From IMG/VR virus record IMGVR_UViG_2551306525_000004, positions 1 to 14,165 of that record: a stretch of 14,165 nt of DNA. The stretch is one strand, 5' to 3'. This DNA is from a virus. Lineage: Duplodnaviria > Heunggongvirae > Uroviricota > Caudoviricetes. Numbering within the stretch: position 1 is the first letter of the stretch; each line of letters starts with the position of its first letter. Below the pieces are notes generated by a model. That model did no database searches. It worked only from the letters and a program-made list of their open reading frames with translations, and was not told the origin of the DNA. The position numbers were made by a program, and so were the translations under genes. Positions 1 through 14,165 of the stretch are shown piece after piece.

Positions 1-138
1 TTTGTGTTGCCTTTGTGCAGAAAGCATCACGACGAGCTGCATGCGGATACCGTGGCATTTGAAGAGAAGTATGGCTCCCAGCTGGAGCTGATATTTCGTT
101 TTATCGATCGTGCGCTGGCAATTGGCGTGCTGGCCTGA
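1..138 (+). CDS. 3' end of an unidentified phage gene (partial, runs off the window start)
   Basis: Open frame from position 1 to TGA at 136-138 (...EEKYGSQLELIFRFIDRALAIGVLA*), immediately upstream of Q in the nin-region position. No family recognised. Confidence 0.4.
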   Translation, partial: FVLPLCRKHHDELHADTVAFEEKYGSQLELIFRFIDRALAIGVLA

Positions 139-155
139 TTTTGTGGAGAAAGTTG

Positions 156-533
156 ATGCGTGATATTCAAATGGTTCTGGATCGTTGGGGAGCATGGGCG
201 GCGAGTGATAGTTCAGGAGTAGACTATTCTCCTATAGCTGCTGGGTTTAAAGGGCTTCTTCCCTATACAAGCAAAACACGTCAGGCATGTTCAGATAGTG
301 ATGCATTAATTATTGAAGGTTGTCTTGCTCGTCTAAGGCAAAAAAGGCCGGACGAACATTCGCTTCTTGTTGCCCATTACCTATACGGTATCTCTAAAAG
401 AAAGCTCGCCAAGGCTCGTAAAAAGGATGAGAAACTAATACGCATTGAGATACAGATGGCTGAGGGGTTTATTGATGGCTGCCTATCGATGCTGGAAATT
501 AGTCTAGAGATGGACCCCGAAATTAAAGATTGA
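156..533 (+). CDS. Q: Late-gene antiterminator Q (short QuuD-like Q family)
   Basis: ATG at 156 preceded by GGAG (145-148); frame is open from TTG 141. Product MRDIQMVLDRWGAWAA... resembles the ~125-130-aa Q antiterminators of E. coli lambdoid prophages as I recall them, and it sits upstream of the lysis module. Confidence 0.8.
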   Translation: MRDIQMVLDRWGAWAASDSSGVDYSPIAAGFKGLLPYTSKTRQACSDSDALIIEGCLARLRQKRPDEHSLLVAHYLYGISKRKLAKARKKDEKLIRIEIQMAEGFIDGCLSMLEISLEMDPEIKD

Positions 534-539
534 TTATTG

Positions 540-564
540 AAGCCCGATTACTCGGGCTTTTGTT
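540..564 (+). terminator. Intrinsic terminator-like hairpin between convergent Q and the antisense gene
   Basis: Stem aagcccg (540-546) / cgggctt (553-559), loop attact, followed by T-rich tract. The stop codon of the minus-strand gene (548-550) lies inside the hairpin. Confidence 0.5.
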
Positions 565-1567
565 CCACATCTCGAACATAGAGAATTACTGCTGACTTAA
601 TGTCACCATCGACGTGTTTTGCGTTAATGCTCAAATGTACAGGCTTTCTTTCCCACTCAGCTCGCTGCAATGCTTCTTTGTTTCCGGATTCATCAAGGAA
701 AACATCCTGAACTACGCAGGTTAGACGTTGGTCGGTATCTACGCGTCGGACCTTAACTTTGAAACTCTCTGGGTCAGTATTATTGACTTCTTCAATTCGG
801 TAAATACCATCAATCCTCATTTCTGATGAACGTCTACGAGCATTCGTAACCAACTCTTTCGCCATTTCAGAATCAATAGTAACGCCATCAATTTGAGCGT
901 TATCTGAACGCACAAAGGATTTGACCATTTGGGTTTTAGCGTCATACGACATACGGTCCATGTTATCGAGAAGTGGTTTTTCCGCAATCATTTCTGAAAT
1001 AACCCGCAGGCGTTTAGTTTCTTGCTCGCTCATGATCTGCATAGTCCGGAGATGTTCTTTCTCTCCATCCTTAGCAATTTCTGCAAGGCGAATATCTTTA
1101 CGGTTGTCCAAGAACCGTTTAAATACTGTTACTCCGCCCCAGATGACTGCTGCGCCGAGAACAGTAAACATGATCTCAGTTGCGTTCATTTTACCAACAA
1201 GTTCCTGTGTGAGTTTGGTTAAAAAGCCATCAATGTTGATTTCTACTATTGAAGAACCCTGTTCTACCGTAACTTCTATTTCTAGGGCATCAAGTTCTTC
1301 TTTGGTCAGTTTGCGGACGTCAGGGACACCGTACTTGGCAAGGGCATATGATTTGTTGATTTGAGCTTGCATTTCAACAAATCCCTTCATAACTGAAGGT
1401 GTTAGCGATCTGTTGAATTTTTCACCGGTTAATCTGATGGTAAGGTTTGGCCATCCGTTGAAACTTAAACTGTCAGGTAAACCATAACCATCAAGATAGC
1501 TTTCAAGCAAATCGAAGGCTTGCTGCTCAGATTCAATGTCTACATGAATCTCATCAAACTTATCCAA
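548..1567 (-). CDS. Hypothetical membrane-anchored protein, 339 aa, unknown function (moron; candidate exclusion/defence factor)
   Basis: Long ORF with TTG start at 1567 preceded by GAGGA at 7-nt spacing. One central hydrophobic helix (EIMFTVLGAAVIWGGVTVF) followed by a K/R-rich stretch. AT-rich by eye and antisense to all flanking phage genes. Confidence 0.75.
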   Translation of the reverse strand: MDKFDEIHVDIESEQQAFDLLESYLDGYGLPDSLSFNGWPNLTIRLTGEKFNRSLTPSVMKGFVEMQAQINKSYALAKYGVPDVRKLTKEELDALEIEVTVEQGSSIVEINIDGFLTKLTQELVGKMNATEIMFTVLGAAVIWGGVTVFKRFLDNRKDIRLAEIAKDGEKEHLRTMQIMSEQETKRLRVISEMIAEKPLLDNMDRMSYDAKTQMVKSFVRSDNAQIDGVTIDSEMAKELVTNARRRSSEMRIDGIYRIEEVNNTDPESFKVKVRRVDTDQRLTCVVQDVFLDESGNKEALQRAEWERKPVHLSINAKHVDGDIKSAVILYVRDVEQKPE

Positions 1568-1862
1568 AAATATGTCCTCATTCTAAGCCAACTGTCACCG
1601 TGAGGTTTGGCAACGCCTGCTTTATTTTTCGTTTTAAGCTGTGTGGCAAAAAAATAATGGAAAAACAGATAAAAATCACTAACGCGGTCCGCATTTTCTA
1701 GATTACTGTGTTAAGAGTGGTTACTTCGCCACACAACTTAAACCCGCCGCTGAGCGGTTTTTTTGTACCTGTAAACTTGGTGCAGCACAGTAAACACGCT
1801 GGTGGTCGTGAATACTGACTTTTTATCTTGCTGGCTTTTTAGACAAGAGTTATTGGTATGTC
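1568..1862. promoter_or_regulatory. Divergent intergenic control region between the antisense gene and the HTH-ORF/methylase unit
   Basis: About 300 bp of AT-rich non-coding DNA between divergently oriented genes. Contains a weak hairpin followed by T7 (about 1747-1766). No confident -35/-10 assignment. Confidence 0.3.
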
Positions 1863-1886
1863 ATGTTAACCAGAAGGGAAAAAGAC

Positions 1887-2090
1887 ATGCTAAAACAGCA
1901 AGATATGACAGAAACCGCCGCCGCAGTCCTTCATTTCTTACCTGCTGACAAGTGGGTAACGCCACGCATGATGACGAGAACTACCGGAGTAAGCGAAGCC
2001 CGGTGCCAGTTAATACTGACTCAGTTAGTTCTGGCGGGTCTGGCGAAGGATAACGGCGGGTACGGGAATAAATTCAGACGCTGCCAGTAA
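1887..2090 (+). CDS. Small hypothetical protein, possibly HTH/winged-helix-like
   Basis: ORF is open from ATG 1863, but ATG 1887 has a better SD (AAGGGA, 7-nt spacing). About 68 aa; the segment TPRMMTRTTGVSEARCQLILTQL looks HTH-like. Lies directly upstream of the methylase. Confidence 0.45.
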   Translation: MLKQQDMTETAAAVLHFLPADKWVTPRMMTRTTGVSEARCQLILTQLVLAGLAKDNGGYGNKFRRCQ

Positions 2091-2209
2091 TGGCGGTTTC
2101 CTGCTGTGAAAATGGGCGGCTGGTGGGTGTTGGTAGCACCTGCCAGCCATTCGCTCATGCTTACTGGTCACAAGCGAACCACGGCCCACTGCTTTAGCGC
2201 AAAAGCAGA

Positions 2210-3301
2210 GTGAGCCTACCAGAGTTACGCTTACTGATCCATGAAAATACTGTAAAAATAAACAGTGTTGATTTAATCAACGCTGATTGCCTGCATTTTA
2301 TTCAGTCCCTGCCTGATAACTCCATTGATCTGATTGTTACCGATCCGCCGTACTTCAAAGTGAAGCCCAACGGCTGGGACAATCAGTGGAAAGGGGACGA
2401 AGATTACCTGAAGTGGCTGGACCACTGTCTGGCCCAGTTCTGGCGGGTACTGAAACCAGCCGGAAGCCTTTACCTGTTCTGTGGGCATCGCCTGGCATCT
2501 GATATTGAGATCATGATGCGTGAACGTTTCAACGTGCTTAACCATATCATCTGGGCGAAGCCGTCCGGACGTTGGAATGGGTGTAATAAAGAAAGTCTGC
2601 GCGCATATTTTCCTGCCACAGAGCGCGTTCTGTTTGCTGAACATTACCAGGGGCCATATCGCGGCAAAAGTGACGGCTATGCGGCAAAAGAAAGGGAACT
2701 CAAACAGCACATAATGGCACCGCTGATATCGTATTTCAGGGATGCTCGTGCCGAACTGGGTATAACGGCAAAACAAATTGCCGAAGCCACAGGTAAGAAA
2801 AATATGGTTTCCCACTGGTTTGGTGCCAGTCAGTGGCAGTTGCCGAATGAGGCTGACTACCGGAAGTTACAGGCACTGTTTTCCCGTATAGCGGCAGAGA
2901 AGTTTCAGGAACAACAACTGGAACAACCACACCACCAGTTGGTGGCATCTTATGATTCACTGAATCGCAAATATTCTGAATTGCTGGATGAGTTTAAATC
3001 TCTCCGGCGCTATTTCTCCGTATCAGTCTCCGTGCCTTATACCGATGTCTGGATGCATAAACCCGTTCAGTTCTACCCGGGTAAACATCCGTGTGAGAAA
3101 CCGGCGGATATGCTCAGGCAAATAATCAATGCCAGTAGTCGACCCGGCGATCTGGTTGCTGATTTCTTTATGGGATCCGGTTCCACAATAAAAGCAGCAA
3201 TGGCGCTGGGGCGTCGGGCGTTAGGTGTTGAGCTTGAGACAGAGCGGTTTAATCAGACCATCCAGGAAATCAGTATGTTATCAGCAAATACAATTTTGTG
3301 A
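2210..3301 (+). CDS. Site-specific DNA adenine methyltransferase, beta-class (CcrM/HinfI/YhdJ-like)
   Basis: Motif IV DPPY near the N-terminus (IVTDPPYF) and motif I FxGxG near the C-terminus (DFFMGSGST), preceded by HPCEKP, typical of beta-class N6A methyltransferases. GTG start at 2210. A central insert contains an HTH-like stretch (ELGITAKQIAEATG). Confidence 0.85.
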   Translation: MSLPELRLLIHENTVKINSVDLINADCLHFIQSLPDNSIDLIVTDPPYFKVKPNGWDNQWKGDEDYLKWLDHCLAQFWRVLKPAGSLYLFCGHRLASDIEIMMRERFNVLNHIIWAKPSGRWNGCNKESLRAYFPATERVLFAEHYQGPYRGKSDGYAAKERELKQHIMAPLISYFRDARAELGITAKQIAEATGKKNMVSHWFGASQWQLPNEADYRKLQALFSRIAAEKFQEQQLEQPHHQLVASYDSLNRKYSELLDEFKSLRRYFSVSVSVPYTDVWMHKPVQFYPGKHPCEKPADMLRQIINASSRPGDLVADFFMGSGSTIKAAMALGRRALGVELETERFNQTIQEISMLSANTIL

Positions 3302-3310
3302 ATTAATTCA

Positions 3311-3346
3311 ATTATTGGTGGGATGTCTGTGCCGTATAATGATTAC
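3311..3346 (+). promoter_or_regulatory. Candidate sigma70 promoter (possible late promoter pR'-like)
   Basis: Perfect -10 hexamer TATAAT at 3335-3340 with a weak -35 (ttattg, 3312-3317). Downstream initial region has repeated -10-like TACAGA/TACAGT (3344-3355), which could act as a sigma-dependent pause element. Confidence 0.25.
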
Positions 3347-3544
3347 AGATACAGTGTATCCTGCAATGCAGCAGGGCTGATGTGGTGGGTTGTACATAGC
3401 CTGCAAAGGATTGGCTTCATTAATTCATCGTTGATACAAGCGAGTCACGGTTGACCACGCCAACGGCTCATCGGTAAAAATCCGACACCGTGTCTTCTTA
3501 ACTCACTTATTGTTTCCACCCATGTTTTTGGATACCTGCTGTAG

Positions 3545-3582
3545 CTGTCAGATTAGCGCGATAATCTGACAGTCTTTTTTTT
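3545..3582 (+). terminator. Strong rho-independent terminator
   Basis: 11-bp perfect stem ctgtcagatta / taatctgacag with a 6-nt loop, followed by T8 (3575-3582). Confidence 0.65.
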
Positions 3583-3870
3583 ACAACGAATCCTTCTGAT
3601 CTGCTTTTGCGGGGCTTTTTGTATCCGCTCCATGCCCGGCGTATAAGCGGAGGTTGGTCAGTTTTCTAAAAATTGAAATACCTCACAATTCAGCCAGTTA
3701 ATGGTTGTTTGTCTGGCGAAGAGTTTGTAAATAAAAAAACGCATGGTGAATCCCCCTAAGCGGCGGGGCGAATCAGCAGTCAGTTCTGGGATAATCGCGG
3801 GTTCGTATGCTGATGCCGGACTCACCGGGAGGCACCCGGCACCATGCATCATGGTCATCCCCTTGTATGA

Positions 3871-3896
3871 TACCCCTCTCCGGAGGGGTATTTTTT
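3871..3896 (+). terminator. Strong rho-independent terminator
   Basis: 8-bp GC-rich stem tacccctc / gaggggta with loop tccg, followed by T6 (3891-3896). Confidence 0.6.
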
Positions 3897-4328
3897 GGAT
3901 AAAAAAGCCCGCGCTGGGAGGCACGGGCGGCAAGGAATAAAACGTGAAGAAATTTTCACAGGCGCATAATAATCCGATGTTGCCAGATTTTGCAACTGCA
4001 TCATCTGGTTATTATGTGAGCTGGAAAATCAGATTCTGTATGGACTGAAGCCATGCTGTTATTTAGGGCCAAAGAGCTGGCTTTTTCCCGCCTTCTCTCC
4101 AGTAACGATTAATGAGAAAAGAATGAAATGCTTTTCCTGGGGAGGAGGGCAGTAGAAAAAAGAACCCGCCAGCAAAAATATGGGGGATGAACAGCTTTTG
4201 CTACTCAGGTTGCTGGCGGGTATGGTTCTTCATGAAATAAGAATGTTACGCGGTATTTTTAATGAAAATGATAATTATTGTCAATTGGTTGTGCGTATTT
4301 TTTCATACATGACTGGTAAAGGTGATTC

Positions 4329-4360
4329 AGGCCATCAGAGTTTTGCTGATGGCCTTTTTT
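4329..4360 (+). terminator. Rho-independent terminator immediately upstream of the holin (tR'-like)
   Basis: 10-bp stem aggccatcag / ctgatggcct with a 7-nt loop, followed by T6. Ends 34 nt before the holin ATG. Confidence 0.6.
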
Positions 4361-4393
4361 CTTTCCGGTAGCACAGGTCTGTTGGGGCGGGAT

Positions 4394-4609
4394 ATGTATC
4401 AGATGGAAAAAATATCAACAGGCATTGCCTACGGCACCTCCGCAGGCAGTGCTGGCTACTGGTTTTTACAATGGCTTGATCAGGTTAGTCCGTCTCAGTG
4501 GGCTGCGATTGGTGTACTGGGAAGTCTGGTTCTGGGCTTTCTGACTTATCTGACGAATCTGTACTTCAAAATCAGAGAAGACAGAAGAAAGGCTGCGAGA
4601 GGAGAGTAA
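4394..4609 (+). CDS. S: Class II holin (phage 21 S-like pinholin) with dual-start motif
   Basis: 71 aa beginning [31 protein letters not shown]..., recalled as matching S21 (SAR-type TMD1 plus TMD2). Met1/Met4 dual start is typical of holin/antiholin pairs. The upstream in-frame extension to 4322 was not used because it would span the terminator. Confidence 0.85.
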
Positions 4610-4613
4610 TATA

Positions 4614-4958
4614 ATGGTCCAAAACTATGAAATGATTGTGAAAGGGATCCGCAATTTTGAGAATAAAGTTACGGTAACTTTAGCATTACAGGACAAAGAA
4701 CGCTTTGACGGTGAAATTTTTGACCTGGACATCTCGCTGGACCGTGTTGAAGGTGCCGCGCTGGAGTTTTATGAGGCAGCAGCCAGAAGGAGCATCAGAC
4801 AGGTCTTCCTGGATGTTGCTGCCGGGTTATGTGGAGGGGATGAGCAGTCGCCGGAAAAGCGCCCCATAATTTTAGAGGCGCAGAGTGTGTGGATAACCTA
4901 CAAAGGAAAACTGCCGGGAAGAATTACTGGTTCACTGAAGACTCCGCCGAAATGGTAA
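4614..4958 (+). CDS. Hypothetical protein inserted between holin and endolysin (DUF1327/YdfR-like by position)
   Basis: ATG 4614 with SD GGAGAG at 7-nt spacing, 114 aa. It occupies the holin-endolysin slot that ydfR occupies in the Qin prophage as I recall; the family assignment is not verified. Confidence 0.55.
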   Translation: MVQNYEMIVKGIRNFENKVTVTLALQDKERFDGEIFDLDISLDRVEGAALEFYEAAARRSIRQVFLDVAAGLCGGDEQSPEKRPIILEAQSVWITYKGKLPGRITGSLKTPPKW

Positions 4959-5196
4959 TTTCACCAGCATATTTTTCCTCCAGTAATACCGCCAGCCACT
5001 TGAAAGAATTTTGTTGTTGCTGGGACCATTTGGGATTGATTGATTCAAGCTGGAGCGATGCCAGTGTTGGTTGCATTTGTTCCTTGGGAATTGAGAATGC
5101 CAGATATGAAAATGCGACAGTAAGGGCATTTACATCATCCCGAAGCCTGGAAATGCAGTCGAGCAACTCCTGTAGAGAAATGGTGCTATTGTCCAT
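4924..5196 (-). CDS. Hypothetical small protein (~90 aa), antisense within the lysis cassette
   Basis: ATG at 5196 (minus) preceded by AGAGAGGA at about 6-nt spacing; the frame extends to TTG 5202. Product looks helical and non-repetitive. The 3' end overlaps the convergent 4614-4958 gene by about 35 nt. AT-rich. Confidence 0.45.
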   Translation of the reverse strand: MDNSTISLQELLDCISRLRDDVNALTVAFSYLAFSIPKEQMQPTLASLQLESINPKWSQQQQNSFKWLAVLLEEKYAGEITISAESSVNQ

Positions 5197-5301
5197 AAAC
5201 AATCCTCTCTATTGTATTTAACTATTCCTTGCCTGATTCAACAGGCCGGGACAGATAAACATATCCAGGGTTCAGAAACCGATAAATCCTGATAAATATC
5301 C

Positions 5302-5835
5302 ATGAACGCAAAAATCAGATACGGCCTGTCGGCTGCCGTTCTGGCACTGATTGCCGTCGGTGCGCCTGCGCCTGATATTCTCGACCAGTTTCTGGATGAA
5401 AAAGAAGGTAACCACACAACGGCATACCGCGATGGTTCCGGCATCTGGACCATCTGTCGGGGTGCCACGGTGGTGGATGGAAAACCCGTTGTTCCCGGTA
5501 TGAAACTGTCGAAGGAAAAATGCGACCAGGTTAACGCCATTGAACGGGATAAGGCGCTGGCATGGGTGGAGCGCAATATTAAAGTGCCACTGACCGAACC
5601 ACAGAAAGCGGGTATCGCGTCATTTTGTCCCTATAACATTGGCCCCGGTAAGTGTTTCCCGTCGACGTTTTATAAGCGGCTGAATGCCGGTGATCGTAAA
5701 GGTGCATGCGAGGCGATTCGCTGGTGGATAAAAGATGGTGGGCGCGATTGCCGCATACGTTCAAATAACTGCTATGGACAGGTTATTCGTCGTGACCAGG
5801 AAAGCGCATTAGCCTGTTGGGGGATAGATCAGTGA
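5302..5835 (+). CDS. R: SAR endolysin (phage lysozyme, T4L/R21-like)
   Basis: N-terminal Ala/Gly-rich SAR segment ([16 protein letters not shown]). Catalytic triad spacing E-x8-D-x5-T in [16 protein letters not shown]. 177 aa, followed by Rz. Confidence 0.85.
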
Positions 5836-6293
5836 GCAGAGTCGCCGCGATTATTTATGCTCTGGTTATCTGCATCATCGTCTGCCTGTCATGGGCTGTT
5901 AATCATTACCGTGATAACGCAATCGCCTACAAAGCCCTGCGCGACAAAAATGCCAGAGAACTGAAGCTGGCGAACGCGGCAATTACTGACATGCAGATGC
6001 GTCAGCGTGATGTTGCTGCGCTCGATGCAAAATACACGAAGGAGTTAGCTGATGCGAAAGCTGAAAATGATGCTCTGCGTGATGATGTTGCCGCTGGTCG
6101 TCGTCGGTTGCACATCAAAGCAGTCTGTCAGTCAGTGCGTGAAGCCACCACCGCCTCCGGCGTGGATAATGCAGCCTCCCCCCGACTGGCAGACACCGCT
6201 GAACGGGATTATTTCACCCTCAGAGAGAGGCTGATCACTATGCAAAAACAACTGGAAGGAACCCAGAAGTATATTAATGAGCAGTGCAGATAG
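5832..6293 (+). CDS. Rz: Spanin inner-membrane subunit Rz
   Basis: GTG 5832 overlaps the endolysin stop (GTGA). Product ...[30 protein letters not shown]... matches lambda Rz closely as I recall it. Confidence 0.85.
6052..6234 (+). CDS. Rz1: Spanin outer-membrane lipoprotein subunit Rz1 (embedded in Rz, +1 frame)
   Basis: 60 aa with lipobox LVVVGC and a proline-rich mature part ([15 protein letters not shown]), wholly inside Rz in another frame. Confidence 0.8.
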
Positions 6294-6324
6294 AGTTGCT
6301 CATATCGATGGGCAACTCATGCAA

Positions 6325-6618
6325 TTATTTTGAGCAATACACCCGCGCTTCCAGCGGAGTATAAATGCCAAAAGTGATGAAACCGAGCAATCCATTTACG
6401 AATGTTTGCTGGGTTTCTGTTTTAACCACATTTTCTGCACCACCACAAATTTTTGCTGCATCGACAGTTTTCTTCTGCCCAATTCCCGAAACGAAGAAAT
6501 GATGGGTGATGGTTTCCTTTGGTGTTACTGCTGTCGGTTTGTTTCCAACAGTAAACGTCTGTTGAGCACATCCTGTAATAAGCATTGCCAGAGCGGCAGA
6601 AAACAACATTTTTTTCAT
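6325..6618 (-). CDS. bor: Bor lipoprotein (serum-resistance/envelope lipoprotein)
   Basis: ATG at 6618 (minus) with AGGA SD. Product MKKMLFSAALAMLITGCAQQTFTV... with lipobox, close to lambda Bor as I recall it. Convergent with Rz/Rz1. Confidence 0.85.
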   Translation of the reverse strand: MKKMLFSAALAMLITGCAQQTFTVGNKPTAVTPKETITHHFFVSGIGQKKTVDAAKICGGAENVVKTETQQTFVNGLLGFITFGIYTPLEARVYCSK

Positions 6619-6816
6619 CTTATTATCCTGCATTGTTAAAAACGGCAGAATCCTATGTGACAACAATTAAACGATAGTTAAATGGATTGATGAAAATTAA
6701 AACTACACAGGTGAGCTCAGACGATTGGAGGGAGTTGGGGACACTCAGAATCCTGTAGAATGAAATAAACCGGTCTATCCGTCCATTACCCTTTTAGCTG
6801 CGCTGTATCGTCGCCG

Positions 6817-6881
6817 TATTCCCGCATTAACCATGACCGTAGCCCGACGGGGAATTCCTTCTGCGTGAGTGTGCGGGAATA
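6817..6881. repeat. 10-bp perfect inverted repeat flanking a 45-nt spacer in the bor-upstream non-coding region
   Basis: tattcccgca (6817-6826) and tgcgggaata (6872-6881) are exact reverse complements. Confidence 0.5.
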
Positions 6882-7098
6882 ATTAAAAACGATGCACACC
6901 GGGTTTTTACCGCGTTAATGATTCGCGGATTTATCCCGGTGCGATGGTGGAAGAAACCGGAAGCTGTATTACAGAAAGTGCTACTACTGTATCCCGATGC
7001 GATGTATGTAATGTGAGTCAGATAATGGCACAGGATGTGGTGATGTGGCAGTCTGGAACACAGGATATATTGTCAGAATAAGACCCGTAGGAATAAAA

Positions 7099-7425
7099 AT
7101 GAAAAGACGCCTTTTACTACTTTTTCTGTTATCTGTCCTAGCAGTGGGATGCTCGCAGCAAAAAGCTGATGAGCCCCGGCAATTAGTGACGGTGTATCCA
7201 CGATATCCGGAATATGCTGCAGCAAATTATATCAAGGGGCTGGTTGAGGTTAAGTTCGATATTGGTGCTGATGGGACTGTGACACGGATCGTTTTTCTCC
7301 GCTCAGAGCCTCATAATTTGTTTCGTGATGAAGTGGTGAAGGCCATGGCGAAATGGCGATTTGAAAAGAATCGTCCCTGTCAGGGAGTGAAGAGACAATT
7401 TATCTTTACGCCGTCACGTCCCTGA
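7099..7425 (+). CDS. Lipoprotein with a TonB C-terminal-like domain (moron)
   Basis: ATG 7099 with AGGA SD. Signal peptide plus lipobox (MKRRLLLLFLLSVLAVGCSQQ). Mature part YPRYPEYAAANYIKGLVEVKFDIGADGTVTRIVFLRSEPHNLFRDEVVKAMAKWRFE aligns well with the TonB C-terminal domain as I recall it (YPARAQALRIEGQVKVKFDV...FEREVKNAMRRWRYE). Confidence 0.7.
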   Translation: MKRRLLLLFLLSVLAVGCSQQKADEPRQLVTVYPRYPEYAAANYIKGLVEVKFDIGADGTVTRIVFLRSEPHNLFRDEVVKAMAKWRFEKNRPCQGVKRQFIFTPSRP

Positions 7426-7517
7426 TGCTTCCAGGTAGAGAGGGGCTGGAAGCAGGAGAAAAATGAAAGAGCCAGCGGTTATATTTTTGTCATGGCTGAC
7501 GAGGAATGATGGAAGAA

Positions 7518-7540
7518 GGCGTTGTATGCCACACAACGCC
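7518..7540 (-). terminator. Hairpin 8 nt downstream of the 7548-7727 gene (possible bidirectional terminator)
   Basis: Stem ggcgttgt / acaacgcc with a 7-nt loop. T-rich flanks on both strands but no clean U-tract. Confidence 0.35.
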
Positions 7541-7547
7541 TCACTGT

Positions 7548-7727
7548 TCATTTCTTCTTTTTCTCTAGTGGAACCCGATGAATAAGAGTTGCACTGGTTT
7601 CCGATGAGATGGCGATATACTCGGGCAAAGTATGCTGGCAGTTTTCCAACTGGTCAAAAATACCTGCTCTCGTCTGTTGCAATGCCTGCAGCATGCGGCG
7701 GCAATGCGCCTTGCTTTTGCTAACCAT
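7548..7727 (-). CDS. Hypothetical small protein (59 aa)
   Basis: ATG at 7727 (minus) preceded by a strong SD AGGAAGGA at 4-nt spacing. The longer 117-aa frame overlaps the upstream gene, so the shorter start is preferred. Confidence 0.45.
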   Translation of the reverse strand: MVSKSKAHCRRMLQALQQTRAGIFDQLENCQHTLPEYIAISSETSATLIHRVPLEKKKK

Positions 7728-7788
7728 CTTTCCTTCCTCTATCAGTCGCTGCGTGAACTCATCATGGAATACCAGGTAAATGCGGATG

Positions 7789-8040
7789 TTATCGGTTTTG
7801 GCTACGCAGCATAGTACAAAACGGACAGGTGCATCCCGGGACGGGGGAGGCGTCACATGTCCCTGTGATGGTTGTTCCGGGTAATGCACTGTGTGGGGCA
7901 TAAAAATGTCCGATAATTTTACTTTCTACCGCAGTTAGTTGATTCGTTGGTCCTGGTAGCACATTGGGCGAGGATTTAAATGCCAGGCAACTGAAGGATG
8001 ATGTTGCAAGGGAGATAGCGAGAATATTTCTGATTTTCAT
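7789..8040 (-). CDS. Hypothetical small secreted Cys-containing protein (83 aa)
   Basis: ATG at 8040 (minus) with AGAGG SD. N-terminal signal-peptide-like segment MKIRNILAISLATSSFSCLA. Mature part carries 5 Cys (CDASPVPGCTCPFC). Confidence 0.45.
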   Translation of the reverse strand: MKIRNILAISLATSSFSCLAFKSSPNVLPGPTNQLTAVESKIIGHFYAPHSALPGTTITGTCDASPVPGCTCPFCTMLRSQNR

Positions 8041-8149
8041 TTGATGATGCCTCTGTGTGAAATGACGGTAAACGACGCACTTGTGCCGGCACATAATAGC
8101 AAGCACCATAATAGATCAGATTCGATTCTTGCTGTAAGTGATAATTATT

Positions 8150-8378
8150 CTCGTTTTTCGGGTCCTTTCCGGCGATCCAACAGGCTACGGGGCGGCGACC
8201 TCGCGGGTTTTCGCTATTTATGAAAATTTTCCGGTTTAAGGCGTTTCCGTTCTTCTTCGTCATAACTTAATGTTTTTATTTAAAATACCCTCTGAAAAGA
8301 AAGGAAACGACAGGTGCTGAAAGCGAGCTTTTTGGCCTCTGTCGTTTCCTTTCTCTGTTTTTGTCCGTGGAATGAACA
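8150..8378. other. cos: Lambda-type cos site (cosQ-cosN-cosB); cosN 12-nt cohesive end GGGCGGCGACCT at 8190-8201
   Basis: Sequence ...caggctacg|gggcggcgacct|cgcgggttttcgctatttatgaaaattttccgg... matches the lambda genome ends/cos as I recall them, and Nu1 starts 189 nt downstream. Confidence 0.85.
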
Positions 8379-8898
8379 ATGGAAGTCAACAAAAAGCAGC
8401 TGGCTGACATTTTCGGTGCGAGTATCCGTACCATTCAGAACTGGCAGGAACAGGGAATGCCCGTTCTGCGAGGCGGTGGCAAGGGTAATGAGGTGCTTTA
8501 TGACTCTGCCGCCGTCATAAAATGGTATGCCGAAAGGGATGCTGAAATTGAGAACGAAAAGCTGCGCCGGGAAGTTGAAGAACTGCGGCAGGCCAGCGAG
8601 ACAGATCTCCAGCCAGGGACTATTGAGTACGAACGCCATCGACTTACGCGTGCGCAGGCCGACGCACAGGAGCTGAAAAATGCCAGAGACTCCGCTGAAG
8701 TGGTGGAAACCGCATTCTGTACTTTCGTGCTGTCGCGGATCGCAGGTGAAATTGCCAGTATTCTCGACGGGATCCCCCTGTCGGTGCAGCGGCGTTTTCC
8801 GGAACTGGAAAACCGACATGTTGATTTCCTGAAACGGGATATCATCAAAGCCATGAACAAAGCAGCCGCGCTGGATGAACTGATACCGGGGTTGCTGA

Positions 8899-8924
<26 letters not shown>
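8379..8924 (+). CDS. nu1: Terminase small subunit Nu1
   Basis: 181 aa MEVNKKQLADIFGASIRTIQNWQEQGMPVLRGGGKGNEVLYDSAAVIKWYAERD..., nearly identical to lambda gpNu1 as I recall it. Confidence 0.95.
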
Positions 8925-12605
<3,681 letters not shown>

Positions 12606-12625
<20 letters not shown>

Positions 12626-12935
12626 TCTCCCGCATATTGCCAGCATGGCTTTTAATGAGCCGCTGATGCTTGAACCCGCCTATGCGCGGGTTTTCTTTTG
12701 TGCGCTTGCAGGCCAGCTTGGGATCAGCCGCCTGACGGATGCAGTATCCGGCGACAGCCTGACTGCCGGAGAGGCACCCGCGGCGCTGGCGTTATCCGGT
12801 GATGATGACGGACCACGACAGGCCCGCAGTTATCAGGTCATGAACGGCATCGCCGTGCTGCCGGTGTCCGGTACGCTGGTCAGCCGGACGCGGGCGCTGC
12901 AGCCGTATTCGGGAATATCTTCAGTCCCATACTGA
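12606..12935 (+). pseudogene. C: Truncated gene C (head protease/scaffold); only about 103 N-terminal codons of lambda-like sequence, then out-of-context sequence to a stop
   Basis: GTG 12606, product MTAELRNLPHIASMAFNEPLMLEPAYARVFFCALAGQLGIS...RALQPYSG matches the lambda gpC N-terminus (full length about 439 aa). Homology stops near 12916 and the frame ends at 12935. Confidence 0.8.
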
Positions 12936-12936
12936 T

Positions 12937-13071
12937 ATGCCCGGCAACGATGACCTGAAGGGCATTAACGTGAAATACCGTTATGAGTTTACGGACACGC
13001 TGGGGATGGTGACGTCATTCAGCTATGCAGAAGACAAGAATCGCCAGCTGACTCATTACAGCGATAGCCGT
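12937..13071 (+). pseudogene. lom: Internal fragment of a lom-like (Ail/Lom/PagC family) outer-membrane protein gene
   Basis: Translation PGNDDLKGINVKYRYEFTDTLGMVTSFSYAEDKNRQLTHYSD matches an internal segment of lambda Lom (VPGSDDLNGINVKYRYEFTDTLGLVTSFSYAGDKNRQLTRYSD) as I recall it. No signal peptide and no C-terminus. Confidence 0.6.
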
Positions 13072-13245
13072 TCTGACGGTACTCATCCCCGCGCCAATCT
13101 GGCGGGCAATGGTTTCAATCGATGGCCAGCACACACCTTCGTCATTACTGAAATCAGCCAGGCGGGCCATAATTGCCACGCTGGATAATTTCATGCCTGA
13201 CGCTGCGCAACCATCCCATACATAGCCGGTTAATTTAGTGCTCAT
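13015..13245 (-). pseudogene. Truncated HTH (HTH_36-like) replication/regulatory gene N-terminus, e14 ymfN-like
   Basis: First ~58 codons (MSTKLTGYVWDGCAASGMKLSSVAIMARLADFSNDEGVCWPSIETIARQIGAGMSTVR) look like the HTH N-terminus of phage replication-initiation proteins. The remaining 18 codons are antisense of the lom fragment, so the gene is cut at about 13071/13072. Confidence 0.5.
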
Positions 13246-13254
13246 GACCGACCT

Positions 13255-13593
13255 CTATTTCCCTGAATTTACGACGAAACTGTTCGAGCGGACTGAAGCA
13301 CTCATGCTCATAGCCTTCGCGGAGGTAGATAACCCGTTGTGTTTCCGGTTCCCAACGAATGACTCTGACGGGCACTCCGTAGTGATCTTTGAACCAGCGG
13401 TTAACTTGTCGCAAAGGACTGTCTCCTTCTGCCGGTTGAAATCCCCCACAGCCCACTCTGCAAAGCTGTGGGTTACAATTTCCCTGTCACCTGGTACATT
13501 CACTGCATAGCAATATTCCACCTTCGCTTTTCCACCCGGTACAGGAAGCGCAATCAGTTGCGAGCGACGGTAGTGTGTTGTTAAACTGTTCAT
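13255..13593 (-). CDS. Hypothetical protein, 112 aa (e14 ymfM-like by size and position)
   Basis: ATG 13593 overlaps the stop of the upstream gene (ATGA). The size and the 189-aa / 112-aa / HTH gene order match e14 ymfL-ymfM-ymfN as I recall. The C-terminal half is low-complexity and an alternative frame overlaps it. Confidence 0.45.
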
Positions 13594-14159
13594 GCGTTAG
13601 TTTCTCCACAACCAGAAGCAATCGACGCCACGACGCCCGGAGCTGCACACTCGCGGGCGTCATTACTTTCTGAAATGCAAAAGATTTTGTAGACCAGTGC
13701 TGCATGCTCCTGCAGCTTCGAAATTGAGAGATACAGCTCGTCGTTAATTGCTGTCTTCTCATGCGGTTCCACTACACCGTCTTCGATTGCTGAACGAATC
13801 TGTTTTGAATAACTGCCGATCTGTTCAATGACTTCCAGCAGACGCTGGTTAATATCGGCGTTGTCCACATCCTCGACGTCAGGAAGCGACACAAAGACGC
13901 CATTTGCAGACTGCGCCACAGCATCAGCAATGAAGTGAGTGCCACCAGCACGCTGTAAAACCATTGCCCATCCCAGCGGGAAAATCTGATCGCCATCTGC
14001 ACGAAGGCGGTTGAATAAAGCGTTTTCTGTTACATCGAGCCAGTCAGCCGCTTCAGCGTAACCACCCGGCAACGCCGCGATAGTTTTTCTGACAGCTTTC
14101 ACGTACCACTCAGGCTGTTTTTCTATTTTCCAGTGATGCTTACCCACGATTAGCCTCAT
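13590..14159 (-). CDS. Phage CII-like regulatory protein (CP76-type; e14 ymfL-like), 189 aa
   Basis: Full-length [61 protein letters not shown]...; the family assignment is from memory. Its promoter lies outside the window. Confidence 0.6.
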
Positions 14160-14165
14160 CGTTGT

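Follow-up and report, generated by a model that had tools for sequence, protein, structure and literature searches.

Why should a prophage set three strong transcription terminators in front of the genes that lyse its host? The question is raised by a stretch of viral DNA of 14,165 nucleotides (IMG/VR record IMGVR_UViG_2551306525_000004, positions 1 to 14,165; the whole stretch is called the window here), which is the late region of an Escherichia coli lambdoid prophage. Between its gene for an N6/N4 DNA methyltransferase (2210-3301, + strand; Pfam PF01555) and its gene for a class II, S21-type holin with a dual start (4395-4609, +; Pfam PF04971, start as in the RefSeq annotation of strain IHE3034), the first of the lysis genes, there is a gap of 1093 bp (3302-4394). 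An earlier examination of the letters alone (the sequence-only reading) had taken this gap for a Q-dependent late-control region. We read it as a cargo ("moron") slot within the Q-dependent late operon, with the methylase gene as its left border, filled by a mosaic of autonomous small RNA (sRNA) genes that are ended by the terminators, and give this reading a probability of about 0.78. It is supported directly by the terminators, by the family assignments of the RNAs, by the mosaic presence and absence of modules and by the homology of a probable late-control unit far upstream, at 1676-1766. From the sequence we further infer that the units are transcribed, where their RNAs end, that the terminators insulate them and that polymerase modified by Q reads through.

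Terminators and reading frames in the methylase-holin gap

The three strong intrinsic terminators that had been noticed on the + strand were confirmed, at 3544-3582 (T1), 3869-3896 (T2) and 4329-4360 (T3). T1 has a 12-bp stem (3544-3573) followed by T8 (3575-3582) and folds with -17.2 kcal/mol (z -3.8 against shuffled sequences); T2 has a 10-bp stem (3869-3892) with a U-run to 3896 (-19.2 kcal/mol, z -3.8 in the same comparison). The holin-proximal T3 has a 10-bp stem (4329-4355) and T6 to 4360; the folded 73-nt stretch around it is less distinct (z -2.0), and the stem is present in both the minimum-energy and the centroid structures. In total, the gap holds eight terminator-like sites (seven distinct), against 1.3 +/- 1.3 expected from shuffles. 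Some elements of this kind had been overlooked: two on the minus strand, one running from 3928 to 3907 and followed by U6, the other with arms 4220-4210/4175-4165 followed by UUCUUUUUU, and a fourth + strand terminator outside the gap, at 1746-1764.

The absence of convincing open reading frames (ORFs) from the gap also held, the longest being of 91, 65 and 63 aa and none having a Pfam match. In some genomes PGAP calls two "hypothetical proteins" here, at 3659-3853 (-) and 4180-4371 (+), which are probably annotation artefacts over RNA genes; several such entries in genome annotations are probably spurious. The first runs antisense to the STnc100 RNA described below. Coding potential of the second was rejected because its ATG is lost and its frame is shifted in the 84%-identical copies of ColV plasmids and of sequence type 131 (ST131). 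The usual cargo 3' of this methylase, tRNA genes, was searched for here and none was found.

Two tandem genes of the STnc100/PasD type

Judged from homology, T2 is the end of a bona fide STnc100 gene (3741-3896, +). The segment 3712-3900 matches the Rfam family RF02076 (STnc100) over its full length with 114.5 bits (E 6e-25), against a gathering score of 47 bits, and thus belongs to the family. The window sRNA aligns with both PasD1 and PasD2 of enteropathogenic E. coli (EPEC) E2348/69, beginning at their mapped 5' end, the equivalent of window position 3741; this 5' end has been reported together with a length of 173 nt, a size confirmed by RNA-seq coverage and Northern blot (PMC8550237). An STnc100-type promoter is predicted at 3705-3733 (+; TTGTTT, 17-bp spacer, TAAATA) and aligns with the regions upstream of PasD1, PasD2 and the stx2B-proximal STnc100, all of which put the start at the G of GCATGG (3741).

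STnc100, PasD1 and PasD2 and EcOnc13 of enterohaemorrhagic E. coli (EHEC) have in common with the window copy the closing helix GCAUGGUG/CACCAUGC, the internal hairpins, the linker, the terminator and the promoter. The location is also the same, i.e., the cargo region of a lambdoid prophage, adjoining the holin operon or downstream of stx; STnc100 and PasD have been described as related prophage sRNAs that adjoin the holin-lysozyme operon or lie just downstream of stx2 (10.64898/2026.05.13.724894; PMC12370729). PasD is expressed in EPEC and Hfq-dependent by Northern blot and by RNA interaction by ligation and sequencing (RIL-seq) (PMC8550237), and STnc100 transcripts have been detected in vesicle preparations of Shiga toxin-producing E. 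coli (STEC) (PMC12370729). In contrast to these shared features, the linker or seed region of the window copy differs from that of PasD; hence, its targets may differ from those of PasD.

T1 ends a second unit, Unit A (3347-3582, +), a predicted structured RNA of about 236 nt with predicted ends, which we treat as a new, distant and previously unrecognised relative of STnc100/PasD. The perfect TATAAT that had been noticed at 3335-3340 was confirmed and would be the -10 of its putative promoter. The best -35 is poor (TTATTG, 2/6, 17-bp spacer), there is no TG extension, and a promoter scan of the window did not call the site. Four variants of the unit were found: that of the window, one shared by loci L009 and L026 (82% identity), one at L010 (72%) and a recombinant one at L013 and L016. 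TATAAT is invariant in all four, and the T1 stem carries compensatory changes among them (ATTA/TAAT against ACGAT/ATCGT). In the RNAalifold consensus, a closing helix (3349-3356 with 3486-3493; ACACGGUG/CACCGUGU) encloses several hairpins and is followed by a single-stranded linker (3494-3543); 8 of the 48 pairs are compensatory, two of them in the T1 stem.

For three of the variants the top Rfam match was STnc100, with 17.6 (window), 24.2 (L009) and 18.8 (L010) bits. Since these scores are below the 47-bit threshold, Unit A is filed as a distant relative and not as a member of the family, with which it shares the architecture of closing helix, hairpins, linker and terminator. The relationship was also recovered in the opposite direction: a covariance model built from Unit A alone (R1) matched the STnc100 gene of the window with 22.6 bits (next match 5.8) and the stx2B-proximal copy with 18.3 bits. 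Compared with STnc100/PasD, the central domain of Unit A is longer and its terminator differs. Of 5426 E. coli genomes, 142 carry the unit; nothing relevant came from two scans of species-representative genomes, and sequenced phages gave no match.

The 72% copy (L010 4001-4182; NZ_CP119008.1, strain CE0011b) lies outside any prophage, with TATAAT and closing helix intact. It is located in a contact-dependent-inhibition (CDI) locus among the insertion sequences (IS) IS200/IS605, IS3 and IS5, is cut off by the IS3 element and has no phage genes nearby.

A PapR-family RNA on the opposite strand

Convergent with the STnc100 gene, the minus strand carries the conserved 3' part of a PapR-family sRNA (3901-3977, 3' end at 3901). 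It was recognised by its alignment with the EPEC candidate sRNA E2348C_1409-1408 IGR (intergenic region), the EHEC homologues of which are EcOnc08/21/42 (PMC8550237 supplements). The EPEC RNA is an orthologue of PapR of uropathogenic E. coli (UPEC) UTI89, because the primers used to clone PapR (PMC4546395) match it: the forward primer is exact at its 5' end, and the reverse primer fits its terminator except for a single mismatch in the loop. PapR, the EPEC candidate and EcOnc08/21/42 share with the window the 3' module, consisting of the CACGUUUU...UUCCUUGCC seed, a GCCCG...CGGGC terminator and a U-run, and also the orientation, convergent with a gene of the STnc100 type. In the window, the seed CCUUGCC lies at 3929-3935 (+ strand coordinates) and the terminator is the overlooked minus-strand element 3928 to 3907. 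The best ungapped pairing of the window RNA with papI falls at nt 74-96, the published PapR pairing site (PMC4546395), with 20 of 23 positions paired (17 Watson-Crick, 3 G-U), a count within the range of shuffled sequences (maximum 20).

The 5' end and body of PapR (about 180 nt, starting with CGGGCUGAAGUCCGG) have no counterpart here. Considering that the 5' ~100 nt are unaligned (the primer sequence is absent from the window), we file the gene as a 3'-module variant. A possible promoter (TTGCAA/TATTAT) is predicted from 3995 to 3966, and the 5' end could lie near 3959 or further upstream; the gene appears to be recombined or chimeric at about 3998. There is no Rfam model for PapR, and Rfam gave no signal for an AgvB or AsxR identity of the minus-strand RNA. 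Hfq dependence has been found in other strains for both PasD (PMC8550237) and PapR (PMC4546395).

The array is a stack of regulatory RNA genes of virulence-linked kinds, PasD/STnc100 (EPEC, STEC) and PapR (control of P-fimbriae), carried in prophages of extraintestinal pathogenic and avian pathogenic E. coli (ExPEC and APEC) lineages such as IHE3034 and APEC O78.

A widespread non-coding module in front of the holin

The rest of the gap is a 365-bp non-coding module (3998-4364) that ends with T3. It is among the most widespread parts of the window, being found with ~84% identity in ~1400 E. coli records, in 643 places on plasmids, and it is absent from sequenced phages. Copies lie beside iss on ColV plasmids and, in ST131, at ~2 kb from papI (for example at L031 4001-4362 and L032 4001-4362); in these copies the holin is missing and the T3 stem degraded, and they are always unannotated. 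An assignment of PapR to this module, suggested by its position near pap in ST131, was dropped, as BLAST of papI against the region gave nothing; the PapR-like RNA is the minus-strand one at 3901-3977.

On its minus strand the module contains a candidate small RNA (4156-4248), with a TTGACA promoter from 4284 to 4255 (10/12 matches in the promoter scan) and, at its end, the 11-bp arms with the UUCUUUUUU run mentioned above. The segment folds with -31.2 kcal/mol (z -5.6), and its designation as a small RNA is speculative. Homology of this hairpin or of T3 to PasA/PasC is not claimed, as they share little beyond a GCCAGC stem motif. The last 97 nt of the module (4264-4360, +) have the 3' end of SgrS as their top Rfam match, a weak one (24.8 bits against a threshold of 37), which does not imply a ptsG-type function because the core seed, CUGAGUAU, is not preserved.

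T3 is separated from the ATG of the holin by 34 nt, in which the promoter scan found no promoter-like site. A terminator-like hairpin with a U-run just before the holin was present in all five cases examined (phage 21, phage cdtI, prophage PP6 of E2348/69, L009 and the window).

The strong mosaicism of the stretch might suggest that it is decaying recombination debris, its hairpins being unexpressed relics with no role in lysis control. The apparently chimeric PapR-like gene, the plasmid remnants of the module with their degraded T3 stem and the small number of genomes with Unit A all fit such a view. However, when complete E. coli genome records were searched, 121 of them contained positions 3250-4420 with an identity of 99% or more, IHE3034, APEC O78 and PMV-1 among them, and T1, T2 and T3 are intact; there are compensatory changes in T1 and in the Unit A helices; the STnc100 copy scores far above its family threshold; and the close homologues PasD, PapR and STnc100 are expressed RNAs. 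We therefore hold decay to be a distinctly improbable account of the array.

A probable late promoter far upstream of the terminator array

We infer that the Q-dependent late promoter is a compact unit at 1676-1766 (+), ~1.6 kb upstream of 3335. The Q antiterminator gene itself (141-533, +) belongs to the Q21 family (Pfam PF06530, E 2e-52; 23 bits against the Q21 chains 6p18/6jnx), its closest relatives being the Q proteins of phage cdtI (89.6% amino acid identity) and of Stx2_EH1846 (74%). The candidate unit has a possible -35 (TCACTA, 1676-1681) and -10 (TAGATT, 1699-1704), with GCGGTCCGC between them, a start at about 1711-1716, a leader with the hairpin GUGGU...GCCAC and a predicted terminator, tR' (stem 1746-1758, T7 to 1764). 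GCGGTCCGC is common only to the three phages with this type of Q, and its sole site in the window is at 1684.

The block 1680-1770 is homologous to the one directly 3' of Q in Stx2_EH1846 and is also found in cdtI; the reverse-oriented genes inserted between Q and the block differ between the window and cdtI. Its 3' 61 nt (1709-1769) are 82-84% identical to those of 933W-type and Sakai Shiga toxin (Stx) phages, where they lie 78 bp after Q. For pR' of the Sakai Stx phages, differential RNA sequencing (Sy et al.) has mapped the start 258 nt upstream of the 3' end of tR' (PMC7547250). Since the published coordinates refer to NC_002695.1 and those of version.2 are shifted, we counted 258 nt back from the tR' U-run of VT2-Sakai, which places the start at L011 903-908, directly 3' of a promoter (TTTACG/16-bp spacer/TATCAT), and corresponds to window 1711-1716.

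The leaders of the window and of Sakai fold into the same two hairpins. The second of these is the predicted terminator, at about +35 to +52, a position like that in phage 21. The curated record of phage 21, in agreement with the published description of the cassette (bioRxiv 10.1101/651190), has a -35, two Q-binding subsites, a -10, the transcription start site, a sigma-dependent pause element and a terminator near +50, all within ~90 bp after the Q21 stop codon, the unit beginning 7 bp after Q. Thus, 1676-1766 is homologous to, and has the anatomy of, an experimentally defined pR' unit for the same Q family. It would be the counterpart of the late-control units of other lambdoid phages (pR'-qut-tR' of lambda with its 6S RNA, pR' of phage 21, pR'-StxS-tR' of Stx phages), with promoter, hairpin leader and terminator. 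The differences are that a reverse gene (548-1567) separates it from Q, that its putative Q-binding element (QBE) does not match the Q21 sites ATTGAGCA/AATGAGCA, and that its homology with the pR' transcript of Stx phages covers the first 60 nt, the 3' part from which the StxS sRNA comes being absent.

The 258-nt pR'-StxS region of Sakai seems to replace the small ORF (1863-2090, +) and most of the methylase gene of the window. In VT2-Sakai (L011 1180-1274) the methylase gene is reduced to its final ~95 nt, directly 3' of tR' and before a tRNA promoter. A homology between that tRNA promoter and the one at 3335 was rejected: the position is the same and the hexamers are misaligned, which leaves a positional analogy only.

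The sequence-only reading had placed this machinery at 3335: TATAAT as a Q-dependent pR', repeats of TACAGA/TACAGT as sigma-dependent pause and site of Q loading, T1 as the tR' that ends a 6S-like RNA, and T2 and T3 as additional barriers. It was an attractive annotation, given a perfect -10 with -10-like hexamers shortly downstream, a strong terminator at ~236 nt (a leader length within the compared range, from ~50 nt in phage 21 to 258 nt in Stx phages) and no other promoter near the holin. We now regard it as very improbable. The unit at 3335 is 2.8 kb from the stop codon of Q, with three genes between them including the methylase, and it is at 1676-1766, not here, that the mapped pR' block of Stx phages has its homologue. 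The stretch 3250-4420 is 99.7% identical in IHE3034, where Q is of the unrelated lambda type (PF03589 instead of PF06530), and the 72% copy of the unit in the IS-flanked CDI locus has no Q nearby. A Q-binding site should co-vary with Q. GCGGTCCGC, which travels with this type of Q, is absent near 3335, and the predicted RNA is a structural relative of STnc100.

The -10-like repeats fared no better. They are not conserved, other variants reading AACAACACGGTG or TCACAACACGGTG, and the stretch that contains them is the 5' strand of the conserved RNA helix that pairs with 3486-3493. Overall, 3311-3582 neither lies directly downstream of Q nor has a QBE matched to the Q type or a conserved pause element. 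What stands of the proposal is a short terminated RNA: given the invariant TATAAT and the compensatory changes in T1, a promoter at 3335 that makes an RNA of ~236 nt is likely, although this RNA is not that of pR'. The late switch of the prophage is thereby moved to ~1.7 kb in the window, away from the holin.

A probable slot for RNA cargo in the late operon

The interval between methylase and holin varies as expected of a moron site. It measures 66 bp in cdtI, contains Unit A alone in L009 and L026, holds tRNAs and stx in Stx phages and the 1.1-kb cluster in the window; the cargo is present or absent between the same flanks, and each unit has promoter-like and terminator elements (predicted). 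Tree et al. 2014 (PMC4104026) described convergent sRNA pairs at the moron site that follows pR', and Pas/STnc100 genes adjoin the holin-lysozyme operon (10.64898/2026.05.13.724894), so the architecture is already known from EHEC and EPEC prophages. The window shares with those moron-site pairs (morons as understood by Juhala et al. 2000) the promoter-gene-terminator units between late-operon genes, the convergent pair on + and - strands and the variable presence. It differs from them in that the slot holds RNA genes only, with no protein cargo such as stx or nanS-p, and has two tandem paralogues of the STnc100 type and no match to AgvB or AsxR. The region is an sRNA cargo cluster of a known kind, to which it adds a structured relative of STnc100 that had no annotation; it also contains an uncharacterised module.

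As long as the prophage is dormant, the RNAs would each be started at a sigma-70 promoter and stopped at a terminator belonging to their own unit, and T1-T3 would keep the constitutive transcription of the cargo out of the lethal lysis genes. This offers a testable rationale for why cargo that precedes a holin always ends with a terminator. Upon induction, Q would load at 1676-1766, and the modified polymerase would pass tR', T1, T2 and T3 to reach the holin, endolysin and spanin genes. The earlier suggestion that the lysis genes need Q to override terminators in series is thus probably correct, with four terminators, counted from ~1711, in place of three.

Alternatively, the sRNAs could be cut by RNase E out of longer transcripts, either the late one or one that reads through from the methylase gene, and the terminators would mainly set 3' ends and attenuate read-through. 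StxS and PasA are indeed processed from longer RNAs (PMC7547250; 10.64898/2026.05.13.724894), and the two predicted promoters (3335, 3705-3733) have a weak -35 or -10. Against this, TATAAT is invariant even in the copy outside prophages, conservation of the PasD-type promoter extends to its distance from the reported PasD 5' end, the cited papers describe PasD and STnc100 as abundant without induction, and tR' (1746-1764) should stop most pR' transcription in lysogens. We consider processing improbable as the main origin of these RNAs.

Several points weigh against our reading of the gap as a slot of autonomous RNA genes. Every 5' and 3' end at the locus is a prediction. The promoter of Unit A has a poor -35, the unit scores under the Rfam gathering threshold, and its covariation evidence is thin because there are only four sequence variants. 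Of the PapR-like gene, only the 3' ~75 nt can be aligned with PapR, and the 3998-4364 module is uncharacterised, as is the start of any RNA ended by T3. In the upstream unit, the hexamers and QBE of 1676-1712 are candidates only, with a weak -35, and the hairpin at about +50 may be a leaky terminator, since the 258-nt pR' RNA of Sakai passes its equivalent.

It is also conceivable, if unlikely, that Unit A founds an unrecognised family of structured RNAs of ~240 nt, which would have branched off early from STnc100/PasD and exist outside prophages too, and that the cluster is a Q-switchable cassette. The sweep of Q-modified polymerase would then leave late transcripts without proper 3' ends (the Hfq-binding U-tails), and the convergent genes would suffer polymerase collisions. 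If this were true, lytic induction would rewire the sRNA network of the host while the same terminators guard the holin.

Neighbouring genes

The reverse gene between Q and the late-control unit (548-1567, -; 42% G+C) is a 339-aa ORF to which no function was assigned; PADLOC gave no match and Pfam nothing above threshold, and a role in defence was dropped for that reason. In the same place cdtI has two different reverse ORFs and Stx2_EH1846 none, so the interval between Q and the promoter looks like a second cargo hot-spot, as far as these sequences indicate. Directly 3' of Q there is a + strand hairpin followed by TTTTGTT (541-565).

Downstream of the holin are the genes for YdfR (4614-4958, +), lysozyme (5302-5835, +) and Rz (5817-6293, +). 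Between the first two of these, the minus strand has a 92-aa ORF (4924-5202), listed as hypothetical in the IHE3034 annotation, for which neither Pfam nor PADLOC gave a match. By coordinate offset to IHE3034, the minus-strand ORF 3' of Rz, at about 6326-6619, corresponds to the gene annotated in that strain as iss (increased serum survival lipoprotein, bor-type), a virulence-associated cargo gene of the window prophage.

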